Below, piece after piece: positions 801-20,544 of a DNA stretch of 64,000 bases. The notes below the pieces were generated by a model that did no database searches, was not told the origin of the DNA, and worked only from the letters and a program-made list of their open reading frames with translations. The stretch's first letter is position 1, and each line of letters opens with the position of its first letter. The translations under genes were made by a program, and so were the position numbers. Origin of the DNA: Clostridia bacterium. Its GTDB lineage: Bacteria; Bacillota; Clostridia; Christensenellales; CAG-138. The stretch is taken from contig JAVVSK010000005.1 of assembly GCA_036654235.1 (NCBI GenBank), positions 31,650 through 95,649 of the forward strand, read 5' to 3'.

Positions 801-963
801 TTTTGCATCTCCTATAAGCTATTGCTTTGATTTTCGAAACTTTATAAAAACGCAAATTTTAATATCATTATTGTGAGAAGCGTTATTATAAATCTTTTTT
901 CACGAGGCTATTATAAACTTAATTCTATACTGTTACTGTAAAATTCGCAAACATGCCGACGCG

Positions 964-3900
964 TCAAATATTTAAACAGCTTTCCATGTTCTCAAAAAGC
1001 GCCGGCAATGATTTAATGAGCTTCTGCAAATCAGCATTTTTAGAAGTTATAGTAAGCGTTGGTTCGGCAGAATTAAGCATTTGCGCTCCGTCGACAGTTG
1101 AAATAAAATCTAAAAAGTTTTTGAAATTAAACGGCGCATCCGAAGCAAAAATCATAGTCGCAGTGTTTTCAAAAACGCGGAGTGTAACGATATAACATTT
1201 TTGCGCCAATGCCTTTATCAAAGCAACAAGTAAAAGGTTGGTTACAGTCTGTGGTATTTCGCCAAATCGGTCAATAAGCTCATCCTGCACGTCGTAAAGG
1301 CTGTCGTATCCATCGAGCGCCGCAATACGCTTATACATGTTTAATCGCATATCATCATTCTTTATATAAGTGCGCGGAATGAACGCGTCAAAGCCTATTT
1401 CAATCTGTGTCTCTATTTGTGGTTGCAATTTTATGCCCCTGACCTCGTTGACCGCCTCTCCCATGAGCTTACAGTAAAGTTCATAGCCTATGTCAGCCAT
1501 ACGACCGTGTTGTTCGGCACCCAAAAGGTCGCCCGCACCGCGAATTTCAAGGTCGCGCATAGCTATTTTATACCCAGCCCCGAACTCCGTAAATTCGCGG
1601 ATAGCCATAAGCCGTTTTTCTGCTATCTCGGTTAATACCTTATCGCGTTTAAAGGTAAAATATGCGTATCCAAGGCGAGTACTGCGCCCGACGCGACCTT
1701 TAAGCTGATAAAGCTGAGAAAGTCCCATTTTATCCGCGTCATATACGATTATTGTATTTGCGTTTTGAATGTCAAGCCCACTTTCTATTATGGTACTGCA
1801 TAAAAGCACATCATAATTTCCTTCGAGAAACGAAAGCATTGTGCGTTCGAGCTGATGTTCGCCCATTTGTCCATGCGCATAGCATATTCGCGCCTCAGGA
1901 ACAAGCTCAAAAAGATAGTTAGAGAACGTTTCCATATTACGTACTTTATTGTAGACAAAAAAGACCTGTCCTCCACGCGCCATCTCCTTTAAAATCACCT
2001 CACGTATAACGACATCCGAATATTCGATAACGTATGTCTGAACCGGTATACGTTCTTCGGGCGGAGTCTCAATAACGGACATGTCGCGAATATTAATAAG
2101 CGACATATGTAGGGTGCGCGGAATTGGCGTTGCGGAAAGAGTAAGCACGTCTACCTGACTTTTGAAATTTTTTATTTGTTCCTTATGCCCAACGCCGAAA
2201 CGCTGTTCCTCGTCTATAATTAAAAGTCCGAGATCCTTAAATAAAACGTTTTTGCCCAGCAATTTATGTGTTCCAATTATTACATCTATTCGACCGTCCT
2301 TTAGACGTTTTAATATGTTCTCTTGTTCTTTAGGCGTTTTAAAGCGAGAAAGAAACTCAACGCTAACAGGAAATCCGCGATATCGCGCCGAAAGAGTATT
2401 AAAATGTTGTTGAGCTAAAAGAGTAGTGGGAACTAAAAAGGCGACCTGCTTTCCGTCCATAACCGCCTTAAATGCCGCACGTAAAGCGACTTCCGTTTTT
2501 CCATAGCCAACGTCACCGCAAAGAAGCCGATCCATTATATGACTGCTTTCCATGTCTTTTTTAATTTCAGCTATACTCGTCAGTTGATCCGGAGTTTCAT
2601 TATAAGGGAAACTGTTTTCCAGCTCTCCTTGCCAAACTGTATCCTCCGAAAATGCATGTCCCGATAAATTAGCGCGCGCGCCGTATAGCTTTACAAGATC
2701 AAATGCAAGAGACTTAACGCTGGCGCGTGCGCGGCTTACCGTTTTATGCCATTCGGCTGAACCCAACTTAGAAAGCTTAGGGATCTCGTCGTTTCCGCCT
2801 ATATACTTTTGGACGCGATCCAGCTGGTCTGTAGGTAGAAATACTTTATCAGTTGCCGCATATTGTAATTTAATATAGTCTTTTGTTTTTTCTTCGACGG
2901 TCATAGTTTCAACGCCCATGAACCTACCTATGCCATATGTCTCATGAACCACATAATCGCCGAGTTTTAGTTCTGTAAAGGCTAGATTTGGACGCTTCTT
3001 TTGTTTTACCACAGCTGTTTTTGAAGCAACTTCCAAAAACAGCTCGTTTTCGGTTATAACGGCGACATGTATTTCGGGGTATATGAAACCGCGCCCTAAG
3101 CTTTCGCCGATTATGAGAGATTCATGTTTAACTATTTCCCTGGTAAGCATATTGGTTATTGCGAAATTTGGAAGATTAAGTTCCTCAAACATTTTTTGAA
3201 GATGTTCGGCACGCGCTCCCGCATAAACCAAAATTGTGAAGCCAGAGAGACTTAGCGAGGTTATGTCCTCTACCAATGCATTGTTAGACAATGAATAACG
3301 CGGGACAGAGCGCGATTCGAATCTAAAAATACATCTTGTAGAAATTAAAGAGTAGGTTCGCGTAAGCGCAAAAAACATAGCAGTGCGCGGAGAATCAAGC
3401 TTAGAAATAGCCTTTTCACTCGATATAAGAAGTGAAAACATAAAATTTGCATTTTTTTCTTTTTCTACATACGCAAGAACGCTGTCCGAAAATTTTGAAT
3501 ATATTGATTTTTCAAGCTCTTCAACTCGCGCCGGTTCATCGATAAGTATAAGTGCATCAGCTGTAAAATAGTCCACTATCGTAATATCGTCAAGAATGAA
3601 TAGTGGAATGAGGTTCATTATATTATCCGGTATAACACCTGATTTTATTTCGTTAAATTCATCTTCAAAAGCTTTTAAACGTGAAAGCTTAAGTAGCCCA
3701 CGCGCCTTTGACGAAGCATTGAGAGGAAGCTCAGTTGCAGGTGCAATCGTAAGAGACAATATATTTTCTATTGAACGCTGAGTATCCTTATCGAAACTTC
3801 GCATAGTATCTATTTCATCGTCGAAAAATTCTATTCTAAAAGGAGTATCTAAATTTACTGGAAATATATCTATTCTTCCACCGATAAGGCTGACTTCACC

Positions 3901-14182: not shown

Positions 14183-15244
14183 TCAATCTTTTTTTTCATC
14201 GTCATCGCGAAGCTTTATAACGCTTGCTGCAAAACGTCTTCTGTCCTGAGATAGAGCGGCGTAATGTTTTTTTGTTGTATTTACGTCTTTGTGTCCTAGA
14301 CAATCGGCAACAAGGTATATATCTCCTGTTTCGCGGTACAACATAGTTCCATAGGTACTTCTAAGTTTATGCGGAGATATTGATTTTTGTGGTACGGCAA
14401 CAGCTGCATATTTTTTAACTATGTTTTCGACAGCGCGCACTGTTAGCCGCTTCATCTGAGACGATAAAAAAAGCGCTCCTTCATATCCCGGCAGCGGATT
14501 TTGTGATTCGCGAATTTCAATATAGTTTAAAAGAGCAGTTCGCGTTTCAGAGCCAAATACGAGAGTGTCTTTATTTCCGCCCTTTCTCGTTATTGAAAAC
14601 TCATTTGAAAAAAAGTTAAGATCGTCCGTATTTAGGCCAACAAGCTCGCTGATTCGGATTCCGGTACCCAAAAACAGGGTAAGTATCGCCATATCCCGTA
14701 TCTTAGCTTTTTCATGAAGCTTTTTTTGATGCATCGTCATACCGAGACCGGTTTCACATGCATCAAGCAGCCGCGCTACCTCGTCCGGCTCAAGGCGAAC
14801 GATAGGTTTATCGTGAAGCTTTGGGGGATCTACAAATGTAGGAACGGTAGATAAAAGTTGTCCTTTTTTATAAAAATACTTAAAAAAAGCGCGAATTGTG
14901 GATAATTTCCTCGCCTTCGTGCTTTCGTTGTTAACAAATTCCTCCCCATTTCTCTCGTAGTAAGAAAGGTATTCTATAAATATCTCAATTTCGGTACTCG
15001 TAATTGAATCAAGGTCGGAAAGAGTTATACTTTCTATGTTTTTATTTAAAAAACGCGGAAGTCTATTAATTAGAAAATTAAAGAAAATTCTAAGATCGGT
15101 AGCATACTCAAAGCGCGTAAGCACAGAAGTCGTACTTTCACGCGCACGAAAATAATCGGCACAGTATGGAGGGAATCCCTTAAGCATTTCCCTGATTTTT
15201 TTCGTATAAATCTTATGGCGCGTCGCCGTATAATCGTTATCCAT
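14183..15244 (-). CDS. Site-specific tyrosine recombinase (XerC/XerD-like)
   Basis: SAM-like N-domain. Catalytic region has RISEL, HKLRSTYGT, GHKDVNTTKKHY (R..H-x-x-R..Y pattern). Confidence 0.85.
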   Translation of the reverse strand: MDNDYTATRHKIYTKKIREMLKGFPPYCADYFRARESTTSVLTRFEYATDLRIFFNFLINRLPRFLNKNIESITLSDLDSITSTEIEIFIEYLSYYERNGEEFVNNESTKARKLSTIRAFFKYFYKKGQLLSTVPTFVDPPKLHDKPIVRLEPDEVARLLDACETGLGMTMHQKKLHEKAKIRDMAILTLFLGTGIRISELVGLNTDDLNFFSNEFSITRKGGNKDTLVFGSETRTALLNYIEIRESQNPLPGYEGALFLSSQMKRLTVRAVENIVKKYAAVAVPQKSISPHKLRSTYGTMLYRETGDIYLVADCLGHKDVNTTKKHYAALSQDRRRFAASVIKLRDDDEKKD

Positions 15245-15466: not shown

Positions 15467-16003
15467 ATGAAAAATATAACATGTTCTTTCGCAGGTTACC
15501 GTCCCCAAAAACTCTCAATTTTATATGATGAGCTTAGCTCTCCTTGCGTTCTATTAAAACGAAGACTTAAATCTGAAATTGAAAGAATGATTGAAAATAA
15601 TAACGTCGCTACCTTTATAAGTGGAATGGCTATGGGAATTGATCTTATTGCCGCTGAAATCGTCCTAATAGTAAAAAAAGAGCGCCCTTATGATGATATT
15701 CGTCTTGTAACCGCTATACCCTTTGAGGGTCAGGATGATTCCTGGTGCGGTGAATATAGAAAACGCTATCGTCATGTACTTGATATGGCTGATGAGCAAG
15801 TTATAATAAGCGAATATTATACCAGAGCCTGCATGTATGAGCGTAATCGTTATATGGTGGATAATTCTGACTATATAATAGCGGTTTTTGACGGTAAGTC
15901 GGGGGGAACTAAATACACCCTTGATTATGCTATTAAGAGAGGCGTTGGAAGCGTAGTTATAGACCCTCGCGATTTTCTTTTTTTCGATCGTCTTGTAGTT
16001 TAG
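15467..16003 (+). CDS. SLOG-superfamily protein, DUF1273 / YpsA-like
   Basis: FAGYRPQKL...FISGMAMGIDLIAAEIVL...IPFEGQDDSW...RNRYMVDNSDYIIAVFDG..GGTKYT matches the YpsA/DUF1273 pattern. Confidence 0.7.
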   Translation: MKNITCSFAGYRPQKLSILYDELSSPCVLLKRRLKSEIERMIENNNVATFISGMAMGIDLIAAEIVLIVKKERPYDDIRLVTAIPFEGQDDSWCGEYRKRYRHVLDMADEQVIISEYYTRACMYERNRYMVDNSDYIIAVFDGKSGGTKYTLDYAIKRGVGSVVIDPRDFLFFDRLVV

Positions 16004-17664: not shown

Positions 17665-17711
17665 GCTCAGCTCTGAGGGCTAAAAAGCAATGAACAAAAG
17701 CTTGGACTATA

Positions 17712-17750
17712 ATATAATCCGCCCACTGTTAACAGTGGGCGGATTATATT
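17712..17750. terminator. Bidirectional terminator between convergent genes
   Basis: Perfect palindrome ATAATCCGCCCACTG-ttaa-CAGTGGGCGGATTAT. Confidence 0.7.
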
Positions 17751-17768
17751 AGTCCTGTTTCCGACTTT

Positions 17769-20015: not shown

Positions 20016-20118
20016 ATTGCCCCCTAAATTTCTATAAAGTTGCCAAAGTCATAAGAATATCACGCTACGATTTTGAAACAGGATTGAGCCGTTTCGGGTT
20101 GAATTTTACCTTTAAGTT

Positions 20119-20156
20119 AAAAAAATGTCGAGATTAAATATCTCGACATTTTTTAT
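20119..20156. terminator. Terminator ending the tRNA/6S RNA operon (symmetric, A-run/T-run on both sides)
   Basis: AAAAAATGTCGAGAT-taaat-ATCTCGACATTTTTT. Confidence 0.7.
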
Positions 20157-20163
20157 TAAACGA

Positions 20164-20237
20164 TGGCTGCGGAACTAAGATTCGAACTTAGACAATACGA
20201 GTCAGAGTCGTAGGTGCTACCATTACACAATTCCGCA
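20164..20237 (-). tRNA. tRNA-Gln (anticodon CUG), CCA encoded
   Basis: Hand-folded cloverleaf. Acceptor UGCGGAA/UUCCGCA (U1:A72, typical of bacterial tRNA-Gln). Anticodon stem UACGA/UCGUA with loop CU-CUG-AC. T-arm CUAAG-UUCGAAU-CUUAG. Ends with discriminator G plus CCA. Confidence 0.9.
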
Positions 20238-20239
20238 AA

Positions 20240-20414
20240 AAAGATCCCGAGATGCCGTTTGCCCCTAAATAACACCCGCCTCTCGGCAGGTGGGTGCGCT
20301 GTGACGGCTGCTGCTTACTTGAGTCTGAGACCAAATGGCTTTCACTCGACCAACCCGCGCTCCCGATGTTACTTTGTGGGTTTATAAAAAGGACATAACG
20401 CACACCACAGGATT
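20240..20414 (-). ncRNA. ssrS: Probable 6S RNA (SsrS)
   Basis: GC-rich 175-nt spacer between the two tRNAs. The 5' end (AAAUCCUGUGGUGUGCGUUAUGUCC) pairs with the 3' end (GGGGCAAACGGCAUCUCGGGAU). Inside is an A/U-rich unpaired 5' bubble strand and a 3'-side hairpin CACCUGCC-GAGA-GGCGGGUG (20273-20292). Several blocks resemble E. coli 6S as I recall it (CGGCAUCUCGG; GCGG(G)UUGGU(C)GAG; ACC(C)ACAA(A)G). Confidence 0.7.
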
Positions 20415-20415
20415 T

Positions 20416-20492
20416 TGGTGGGATTAATTGGAATCGAACCAACGACCTCTACGATGTCAACGTAGCGCTCTAACCAGCTGAGCTATAACCCC
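20416..20492 (-). tRNA. tRNA-Val (anticodon GAC), CCA encoded
   Basis: Hand-folded: GGGGUUA-UA-GCUC-AGCUGGUUA-GAGC-G-CUACG-UUGACAU-CGUAG-AGGUC-GUUGG-UUCGAUU-CCAAU-UAAUCCC-A-CCA. Confidence 0.92.
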
Positions 20493-20516
20493 GTGCAAAA
20501 ATTCCTTACGGATATT

Positions 20517-20544
20517 ATTATACACATGATTTCTGATTTTGCAA
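20517..20544 (-). promoter_or_regulatory. Sigma-A-type promoter for the tRNA-Val/6S/tRNA-Gln operon
   Basis: TTGCAA, 16 nt spacer, TATAAT on the minus strand, about 25 nt upstream of the tRNA-Val 5' end. Confidence 0.5.

Follow-up and report, generated by a model that had tools for sequence, protein, structure and literature searches.

6S RNA is an ordinary and nearly universal RNA, usually described as the product of a stand-alone gene that accumulates in stationary phase and dampens sigma-70/sigma-A transcription. A direct link between a 6S gene and a tRNA gene is known from streptococci. In S. pneumoniae D39, ssrS and tRNA-Lys1 form a joint transcript with no transcription start site between the genes (PMC6212727), and the ssrS-tRNA-Lys arrangement is present across Streptococcaceae (PMC8414754; S. 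mutans preprint, bioRxiv 10.1101/2021.11.16.468913). The locus investigated here lies in a stretch of 64,000 nt from an uncultured Clostridia bacterium (GCA_036654235.1, contig JAVVSK010000005.1, positions 31,650 to 95,649; hereafter, the window), in which a probable 6S RNA gene is enclosed between tRNA-Val(GAC) and tRNA-Gln(CUG) in what appears to be a single operon. Literature searches found no tRNA-6S-tRNA unit, only the Streptococcus ssrS-tRNA-Lys pair, although an earlier mention in the main comparative 6S literature is possible, and the B. methanolicus and C. difficile ModT papers contain nothing on a tRNA-flanked 6S RNA. A preliminary description of this DNA had known of no earlier account of the arrangement. 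In the literature searched, this holds for a 6S gene that lies downstream of a tRNA and is flanked by tRNAs on both sides, and does not hold for 6S-tRNA co-transcription, for which the streptococcal pair is a precedent.

On the minus strand of the window, from 20544 to 20113, a sigma-A-type promoter is followed in order by tRNA-Val(GAC), a G+C-rich segment of 178 nt, tRNA-Gln(CUG), and an intrinsic terminator, and each of these was located where the preliminary description had placed it. Taken as a whole, the observations are best explained, with good confidence, by a genuine 6S RNA gene at 20238-20415 (minus strand) that forms the middle cistron of a tRNA-Val(GAC)-6S-tRNA-Gln(CUG) operon. The features are as follows.

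20539..20544, minus strand: predicted -35 hexamer TTGCAA (consensus scan)
20517..20522, minus strand: predicted -10 hexamer TATAAT, 24 nt upstream of tRNA-Val (consensus scan)
20416..20492, minus strand: tRNA-Val(GAC), CCA encoded (ARAGORN; Rfam tRNA, 70.2 bits)
20238..20415, minus strand: probable 6S RNA (SsrS) gene, 178 nt (Rfam RF00013; homologous to 18 Rfam-confirmed 6S genes in the same context)
20402..20412, minus strand: outer closing helix of the 6S RNA, 5' strand, pairing with 20245-20255 (helix 1, 97.9% paired in 19 sequences)
20389..20395, minus strand: inner closing helix, 5' strand, pairing with 20260-20266 (helix 2, compensatory changes in 7 of 7 pairs)
20365..20388, minus strand: 5' strand of the central bubble, UUUAUAAACCCACAAAGUAACAUC, unpaired in the consensus fold
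20357..20364, minus strand: internal helix, 5' strand, GGGAGCGC, pairing with 20292-20299 (helix 3, 93.9% paired, three compensatory pairs)
20274..20291, minus strand: 3'-bubble hairpin ACCUGCC-GAGA-GGCGGGU (helix 4, 95.5% paired; flagged by the terminator scan, weak T-run)
20245..20255, minus strand: outer closing helix, 3' strand, within CGGCAUCUCGGGA (RNAalifold and pair counts; the CGGCATCTCGG block is common to E. coli ssrS)
20164..20237, minus strand: tRNA-Gln(CUG), CCA encoded (ARAGORN; Rfam tRNA, 58.3 bits)
20113..20154, minus strand: predicted intrinsic terminator, 15-bp hairpin and U7 (fold and shuffle z-score)

The promoter (TTGCAA-16-TATAAT, 20544..20517) matches 10 of 12 consensus positions, and the terminator, AAAAAAUGUCGAGAU-AUUUA-AUCUCGACAUUUUUUU, folds with -18.4 kcal/mol (z = -6.27 relative to shuffles). 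The segment between the tRNAs is 51.7% G+C, compared with 39.9% for the whole window. At the first junction, tRNA-Val ends in ...AATCCCACCA and is followed directly by AAATCCTG. The distance from the tRNA-Val CCA to the 6S helix is 0-4 nt, and that from the 6S helix to tRNA-Gln is 7 nt. The scan of the window gave no promoter-like site between the operon promoter and the terminator. The sole terminator-like match between the two tRNAs, at 20292-20273, was rejected as an internal terminator, as it is the conserved 3'-bubble hairpin of the 6S RNA with a poor T-run. An open reading frame (ORF) of 84 aa listed at 20188-20442 (minus strand) overlies tRNA-Val, the 6S gene, and tRNA-Gln, and is almost certainly spurious. 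The same Val-6S-Gln operon was found in two independent metagenome-assembled genomes (MAGs), GCA_036655175.1 and GCA_036649295.1; therefore, an assembly chimera or artefact can be ruled out.

The assignment of the segment to 6S RNA follows from membership in the covariance model together with a conserved 6S fold that shows covariation. The Rfam 6S model (RF00013) matches 20240-20416 on the minus strand over its entire length (model positions 1-187 of 187) with 56.5 bits and E = 1.5e-8, above the gathering score of 46.4. A permissive Rfam scan of the whole window (E <= 0.05) gave neither a rival family on the segment, which would count against a 6S RNA, nor a second 6S RNA elsewhere. The resemblance to E. 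coli SsrS pointed out in the preliminary description is real: in an alignment with ssrS of MG1655, CGGCATCTCGG is identical in both, and the E. coli blocks ACCACAAG and GCGGTTGGTGAG correspond to ACCCACAAAG and GCGGGTTGGTCGAG in the window. Folded as a single sequence, the segment forms a rod with paired ends (-61.6 kcal/mol, z = -2.5).

An alignment of 19 sequences (the window and the 18 relatives described below; 196 columns) was used to derive an RNAalifold consensus. Its closing helix has an outer part of 10 bp and an inner part of 7 bp. The 5' strand of the bubble is unpaired, the internal helix and the 3'-bubble hairpin measure 7 bp each, and the apical part is variable. Of the cells at the 31 pairs of this consensus, 93.7% hold standard pairs, compared with 46-51% in controls in which the partner was slid by 1-3 columns. 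Compensatory changes, with both sides altered, occur in 13 pairs, and none of 500 shuffles attained the observed value on any of five measures. In this alignment, CCCACCT and ACGGCA are invariant by design of the search pattern, while CCUG, AAACC.AC, and GGGAG lie outside what the pattern required. The consensus of the 5' bubble strand is UUAUAAACCCACAGAUU.ACAUC, with columns 30-55 unpaired, and its AAACCCAC core is nearly invariant even though the pattern left it free. The architecture proposed in the preliminary description (paired ends, an unpaired 5' bubble strand, and a hairpin with a GAGA loop) is thus borne out, with the closing helix now resolved into 10 + 7 bp. On the MG1655 ssrS alignment, the E. 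coli start of product RNA (pRNA) synthesis, U44, falls 8 nt upstream of ACCACAAG. By analogy, pRNA synthesis in the window RNA is predicted to start in the bubble U-run around 20389 and would copy the inner closing helix.

Relatives were collected by a genome scan covering one genome per GTDB species, with a pattern consisting of a tRNA T-arm, 115-145 nt, CCCACCT, 20-45 nt, and ACGGCA. Most of the at least 119 loci obtained were discarded as chance matches or as conserved coding sequence, probably tuf, following tRNA-Thr(GGT), and two loci of the scan, L057 and L032, have no 6S RNA. However, at least 18 further Clostridia-type loci, each from a different GTDB species representative, carry an Rfam-confirmed 6S RNA (48.9-80.8 bits) directly after a tRNA; one more, the nineteenth, is cut off by the end of its sequence stretch. 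Whether relatives keep the tRNA-6S-tRNA arrangement, a check proposed in the preliminary description, can thus be answered: among the matches listed, 14 of 18 relatives have the complete tRNA-Val(GAC)-6S-tRNA-Gln(CUG) unit, and four of these 14 run on into tRNA-Glu. The record labels of the 14 read Oscillospiraceae, Eubacteriales, Firmicutes, Candidatus Allochristensenella, Candidatus Scybalosoma, or simply Clostridia. Variant layouts are Val-6S-terminator (L047) and Arg(ACG)-6S-Phe (L075), and a Lachnospiraceae MAG (L022) has Pro(UGG)-6S. The conservation of the unit across many uncultured Clostridia, with analogues in other Bacillota, extends what had been described from the window.

The spacing and the flanking signals are also conserved. 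In all 19 loci, 2-16 nt (median about 5-7) separate the upstream tRNA from the CCUG that opens the 6S closing helix, whereas the distance from the 6S RNA to the downstream tRNA is more variable (2-40 nt). The base just before tRNA-Gln (position -1) is a U in the window, as it is in 11 of 15 relatives. Of the 18 operons for which upstream sequence is available, 15 have a TTGnnn-16/17-TATAAT site 9-35 nt before the first tRNA, and 16 of 19 close with a hairpin and T-run behind the last tRNA. The 6S RNAs of the relatives are only 39-70% identical to that of the window, and tblastn found no homologues of six window proteins in 29 related RNA loci. The three-gene RNA unit has therefore been kept through deep divergence and a change of neighbourhood. 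Synteny anchored on uvrB was dropped as a route to relatives; the window's UvrB is 100% identical to a protein of a 'Clostridia bacterium' MAG, the next-best homologues are only about 71% identical, and the loci of these relatives at 70-71% (L003-L006) have neither a 6S RNA nor a tRNA beside uvrB. In a Christensenellaceae MAG (L049:575-1695), the tRNA-Gln that follows the 6S RNA has an insert of about 720 nt in its anticodon loop, with a hydrophobic ORF of 160 aa (808-1290, minus strand) and a promoter-like site. Beyond the insert lie another copy of the 3' half of the 6S RNA (1519-1624) and an intact tRNA-Gln, which suggests an insertion with target duplication.

As a control, metagenome contigs were searched with a tRNA-blind pattern made of 6S blocks only (CCTGNGRTGT ... 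CCCACCTG ... ACGGCA), which finds 16 of the 19 known loci while matching none of about 100 unrelated ones. The at least 120 loci obtained were ranked by similarity to the 19-sequence profile. Among the best 10 (94-126 bits), tRNA-Gln(CUG) lies downstream in all 10 and tRNA-Val(GAC) upstream in six, with a seventh cut off at that side. The other 110 loci among the matches listed are 6S RNAs of other lineages; only one of them (L185, Arg(CCG)-6S-His-Thr) is fused to tRNAs, and five further ones have a tRNA 64-250 nt away. Since a scan blind to tRNAs recovers it, the link to tRNA-Gln(CUG), and mostly also to tRNA-Val(GAC), is a property of this 6S subfamily. The linkage is thus neither a search artefact nor a general property of 6S genes. 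Rfam confirms a 6S RNA in 10 of 12 metagenome loci checked. L144 and L220 have a Val(GAC)-spacer-Gln(CUG) layout and reach 116 and 113 bits with the subfamily profile, yet fall below the Rfam gathering score, and Rfam alone would therefore under-annotate the subfamily. At L200:974-1044, a Gut-1 RNA match (RF01706, 54.7 bits relative to a gathering score of 50) follows the tRNA-Gln of a Val-6S-Gln operon on the same strand, after a gap of 43 nt.

Several points weigh against taking the window segment as a 6S RNA that is made and released together with two tRNAs. The source is an uncultured MAG, for which transcription, RNA ends, and polymerase binding are predictions. The RF00013 score is only about 10 bits over the threshold, and the z-score of the single-sequence fold is modest. 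The promoter match in the window is by itself at chance level (four promoter-like sites found, 3.3 expected), and it gains weight because like sites recur in the related operons. The pattern used for the genome scan demands an upstream tRNA T-arm, such that no frequency of the linkage can be obtained from it. Additionally, decoupled forms exist. L081 and L074 have TTGACT-17-TATAAT between the 6S RNA and tRNA-Gln, the only strong internal promoter-like site in the 19 operons; on metagenome contigs, L159 and L188 have a terminator and then a TTGACA-17-TATAAT promoter at this position; and in L130 the 6S RNA has its own promoter, yet is still fused to tRNA-Gln. Coupling of 6S to tRNAs is thus not obligatory in the clade. 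Lastly, tRNA-Val encodes its CCA in the window (where it ends ...CCCACCA) and in all Val-6S relatives, whereas the substrates of Bacillus-type RNase Z lack an encoded CCA (PMC7479834). With respect to the decoupled forms, the near-consensus promoter of L081 and L074 overlaps the 3' end of the 6S RNA within a 37-nt spacer, and their tRNA-Gln and tRNA-Glu can probably also be transcribed independently of the 6S RNA. L194, also a metagenome contig (tRNA-Pro, terminator, promoter, 6S), is a split counterpart of the fused L022.

The modest Rfam score would fit a different explanation, in which the segment is a structured spacer or processing stem between the tRNAs that resembles 6S RNA by chance or descent and is degraded after the tRNAs are released. 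The long closing helix also brings the 3' end of tRNA-Val and the 5' end of tRNA-Gln together, as rRNA processing stems do. However, the conserved parts are specific to 6S RNA (the unpaired AAACCCAC bubble strand, the GGGAG/CCCACCU internal helix, and the 3'-bubble hairpin), and relatives reach 80.8 bits on RF00013. Moreover, members of the same subfamily, L159 and L188, are stand-alone genes with their own promoter and terminator, which argues that the function of the subfamily RNA is independent of tRNAs. A mere spacer is therefore very improbable, and a genuine 6S RNA is preferred.

Granted a 6S RNA, it could be a primary transcript from a promoter of its own hidden inside the tRNA-Val gene, with the linkage being positional only. 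The tRNA-Val(GAC) anticodon loop reads TTGACA at 20455-20460 (minus strand), a perfect -35 hexamer, and separate promoters for neighbouring genes do occur in some relatives (L081/L074, L159/L188/L130). However, 17 nt past TTGACA stands TCGATT, which does not have the essential A at position 2 and is not a usable -10 element; the hexamer was therefore treated as a coincidence. The scan gives no site inside tRNA-Val at 9/12 or better, and none of the 19 operons has a site of at least 10/12 just upstream of the 6S RNA, inside or after the tRNA. The linker of 2-16 nt between tRNA and 6S RNA, seen in all loci, is itself too short for a promoter. We consider a hidden 6S promoter to be highly unlikely. 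The single promoter-to-terminator unit put forward in the preliminary description is supported, in that there is neither room nor signal for an internal promoter and the whole unit is kept in relatives.

On the best reading of these sequences, the 6S RNA lacks a separate promoter; it is transcribed together with the tRNAs and freed when they are processed. In the proposed scheme, RNA polymerase would start upstream of tRNA-Val, transcribe tRNA-Val, 6S RNA, and tRNA-Gln as one precursor, and stop at the terminator. RNase P would then cut at the 5' end of tRNA-Gln, as is expected because this cut is needed for a working tRNA, and the tRNA-Gln 5' end would be the site that sets the 3' end of the 6S RNA. 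The 6S RNA would be left with a tail ...GGGAUCUUUUU-3', 7 nt past its last base pair, that may be trimmed by 3' exonucleases, as for the B. subtilis 6S RNAs (PMC10578484). At the other side, a cut at or just after the tRNA-Val CCA would generate a 6S 5' end with a monophosphate, 0-4 nt before the closing helix. The freed RNA would mimic an open promoter, occupy the sigma-A RNA polymerase holoenzyme, and be expelled when pRNA is copied from the bubble.

The enzyme that would make the 5' cut in this scheme is uncertain. CCA inhibits Bacillus-type RNase Z about 1500-fold with Mg2+ (PMC7479834), and because tRNA-Val encodes CCA, cleavage by a classical RNase Z on this side is doubtful. The preliminary description had both ends generated by RNase P and RNase Z-type cuts; RNase P at the 3' side is retained as an inference, while the RNase Z-type cut at the 5' side is called into question. 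Candidates for the 5' cut are a CCA-tolerant RNase Z as in Thermotoga, which cleaves immediately after CCA (PMC7479834), or a different endonuclease followed by 5' trimming of the RNase J type, as seen for B. subtilis 6S-1.

The encoded CCA also favours the possibility that this is a true 6S RNA whose ends are not set by tRNA enzymes at all, and instead arise, for example, by RNase III acting on an extended closing helix or by RNase Y/J alone. A1-A4 and the 3' U-run could lengthen the closing helix almost to both tRNAs, and RNase III cuts the B. subtilis small cytoplasmic RNA (scRNA), which offers a parallel. Additionally, in B. subtilis the maturation of 6S-1 and 6S-2 relies on RNase J1 and RNase PH (PMC10578484). 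In contrast, tRNA-Gln could not become functional without an RNase P cut at its 5' end, which lies 7 nt from the last 6S base pair, and the U at -1 is kept in 11 of 15 related junctions. In Bacillaceae and in L022, the upstream tRNA has no CCA and lies 0-7 nt from the 6S RNA, an ideal RNase Z substrate. Ends made without the tRNA enzymes are therefore unlikely, though somewhat less so than a hidden promoter or a degraded spacer, and release by tRNA processing remains the preferred explanation.

Fusions of 6S RNA to a tRNA are not confined to the Clostridia-type loci. Five Bacillaceae genomes among the matches listed (Ectobacillus, Mesobacillus, and Bacillus, including Bacillus sp. V3B) have a 6S RNA of 68.8-96.8 bits after a tRNA. 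In three of the five, ARAGORN sets the 6S RNA 0-3 nt after a tRNA-Leu(GAG) without CCA, and in the other two an Rfam tRNA match lies directly before it. In contrast to tRNA-Val of the window, the upstream tRNAs without CCA (Bacillaceae tRNA-Leu(GAG) and the tRNA-Pro of L022) are of the kind that Bacillus-type RNase Z accepts, and a classical RNase Z would be predicted to free the 6S RNA directly. The independent fusions Leu(GAG)-6S, Pro(UGG)-6S, Arg-6S-Phe, and Arg-6S-His suggest repeated selection in Bacillota for driving 6S from a tRNA promoter. Two of the Bacillaceae loci are part of longer runs of RNA genes on one strand: in Bacillus (L083:4190-5440), tRNA-Ser, transfer-messenger RNA (tmRNA), tRNA-Thr, tRNA-Leu(GAG), 6S (81.9 bits), signal recognition particle (SRP) RNA, and tRNA-Ser; and in Ectobacillus funiculus (L028:3350-4760), tRNA-Leu(GAG), 6S, SRP RNA, and eight tRNAs.

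In its widest form, the hypothesis is that in a broad group of gut and rumen Clostridia (labelled Oscillospiraceae, Christensenellaceae, Eubacteriales, or 'Clostridia bacterium') 6S RNA comes solely from the middle cistron of a tRNA-Val/tRNA-Gln operon, cut out as a 5'-monophosphate RNA by RNase P and a 3' tRNA endonuclease that tolerates CCA, with synthesis tied to the tRNA promoter and with such fusions repeatedly selected in Bacillota. We regard this as about evenly balanced between true and false. Promoters of tRNA genes are highly active during fast growth and are shut off in the stringent state. Since the 6S RNA appears to have no promoter of its own, the rate of its synthesis would be set by the tRNA promoter, and we infer, as the preliminary description did, that 6S dosage may be coupled to growth-rate control. 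If the RNA is made only from the tRNA precursor, then its synthesis follows the tRNA promoter, and any accumulation in stationary phase would come from stability alone. Its ends and its 5'-monophosphate status would likewise depend on RNase P and the 3' tRNA endonuclease, and mutations or stresses that slow tRNA maturation would also shift the pool of a polymerase regulator. For B. subtilis 6S-1, a 5' monophosphate influences decay (PMC10578484). The Val-6S-Gln unit is also a ready substrate for studying how a CCA-encoding tRNA parts from a structured RNA a few nt downstream, and a useful annotation rule for the genomes of uncultured Clostridia.

The RNA operon is neighboured by a gene for an HD-domain hydrolase downstream and by divergent uvrB-uvrA upstream. 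Elsewhere in the window, a hairpin at 17700-17765, between convergent genes for an M32 carboxypeptidase and an M23 peptidase, is probably a bidirectional terminator; a mir-374 match at this position (31 bits, gathering score 54) was rejected as a chance family match. A 353-aa ORF at 14183-15244 (minus strand) has C-terminal motifs (HKLRST...GH...Y) that resemble a tyrosine recombinase, and it adjoins a gene for a YpsA/SLOG-family protein at 15467-16003 (plus strand).

In comparison to canonical 6S RNAs (E. coli ssrS and B. subtilis 6S-1/6S-2), the window RNA has the same size of about 180 nt and the same parts, namely a closing helix, a large central bubble, an internal helix, and a 3'-bubble hairpin, and it has sequence blocks in common with E. 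coli ssrS, including CGGCAUCUCGG. It differs in its genetic setting: the model genes have their own promoters, whereas the window 6S gene appears to be a promoterless internal cistron with ends at tRNA processing sites. E. coli ssrS is the first gene of ssrS-fau (fau was formerly ygfA). Other non-tRNA RNAs do acquire ends from the tRNA maturation machinery, such as the E. coli 3'ETS-leuZ sponge RNA, and 4.5S RNA and tmRNA, which are matured by RNase P. None of these is a 6S RNA, and 3'ETS-leuZ is a by-product spacer and not a conserved structured gene. The B. subtilis 6S-1 and 6S-2 genes are stand-alone, and their RNAs owe their maturation to RNase J1 and RNase PH (PMC10578484).

The ssrS-tRNA-Lys pair of Streptococcaceae is similar in that 6S and a tRNA share a transcript, which for the window is a prediction; the window genes are adjacent on the same strand, with neither a promoter-like site nor a convincing terminator between them. 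In Streptococcaceae, however, 6S is transcribed first, from a promoter of its own that lies downstream of rarA, and excision is needed for the tRNA only. In the window unit, a tRNA precedes the 6S gene, such that excision would be required on both sides, and the partners are Val(GAC) and Gln(CUG). The tRNA punctuation of animal mitochondria offers a likeness of another kind: flanking tRNAs are the nuclease recognition sites by which non-tRNA RNA is released (PMC9525292). This resemblance is one of mechanism, as predicted for the window, and not of family. Mitochondrial punctuation is organelle-wide and frees mRNAs and rRNAs, whereas the window operon would release one regulatory RNA from a three-gene unit.

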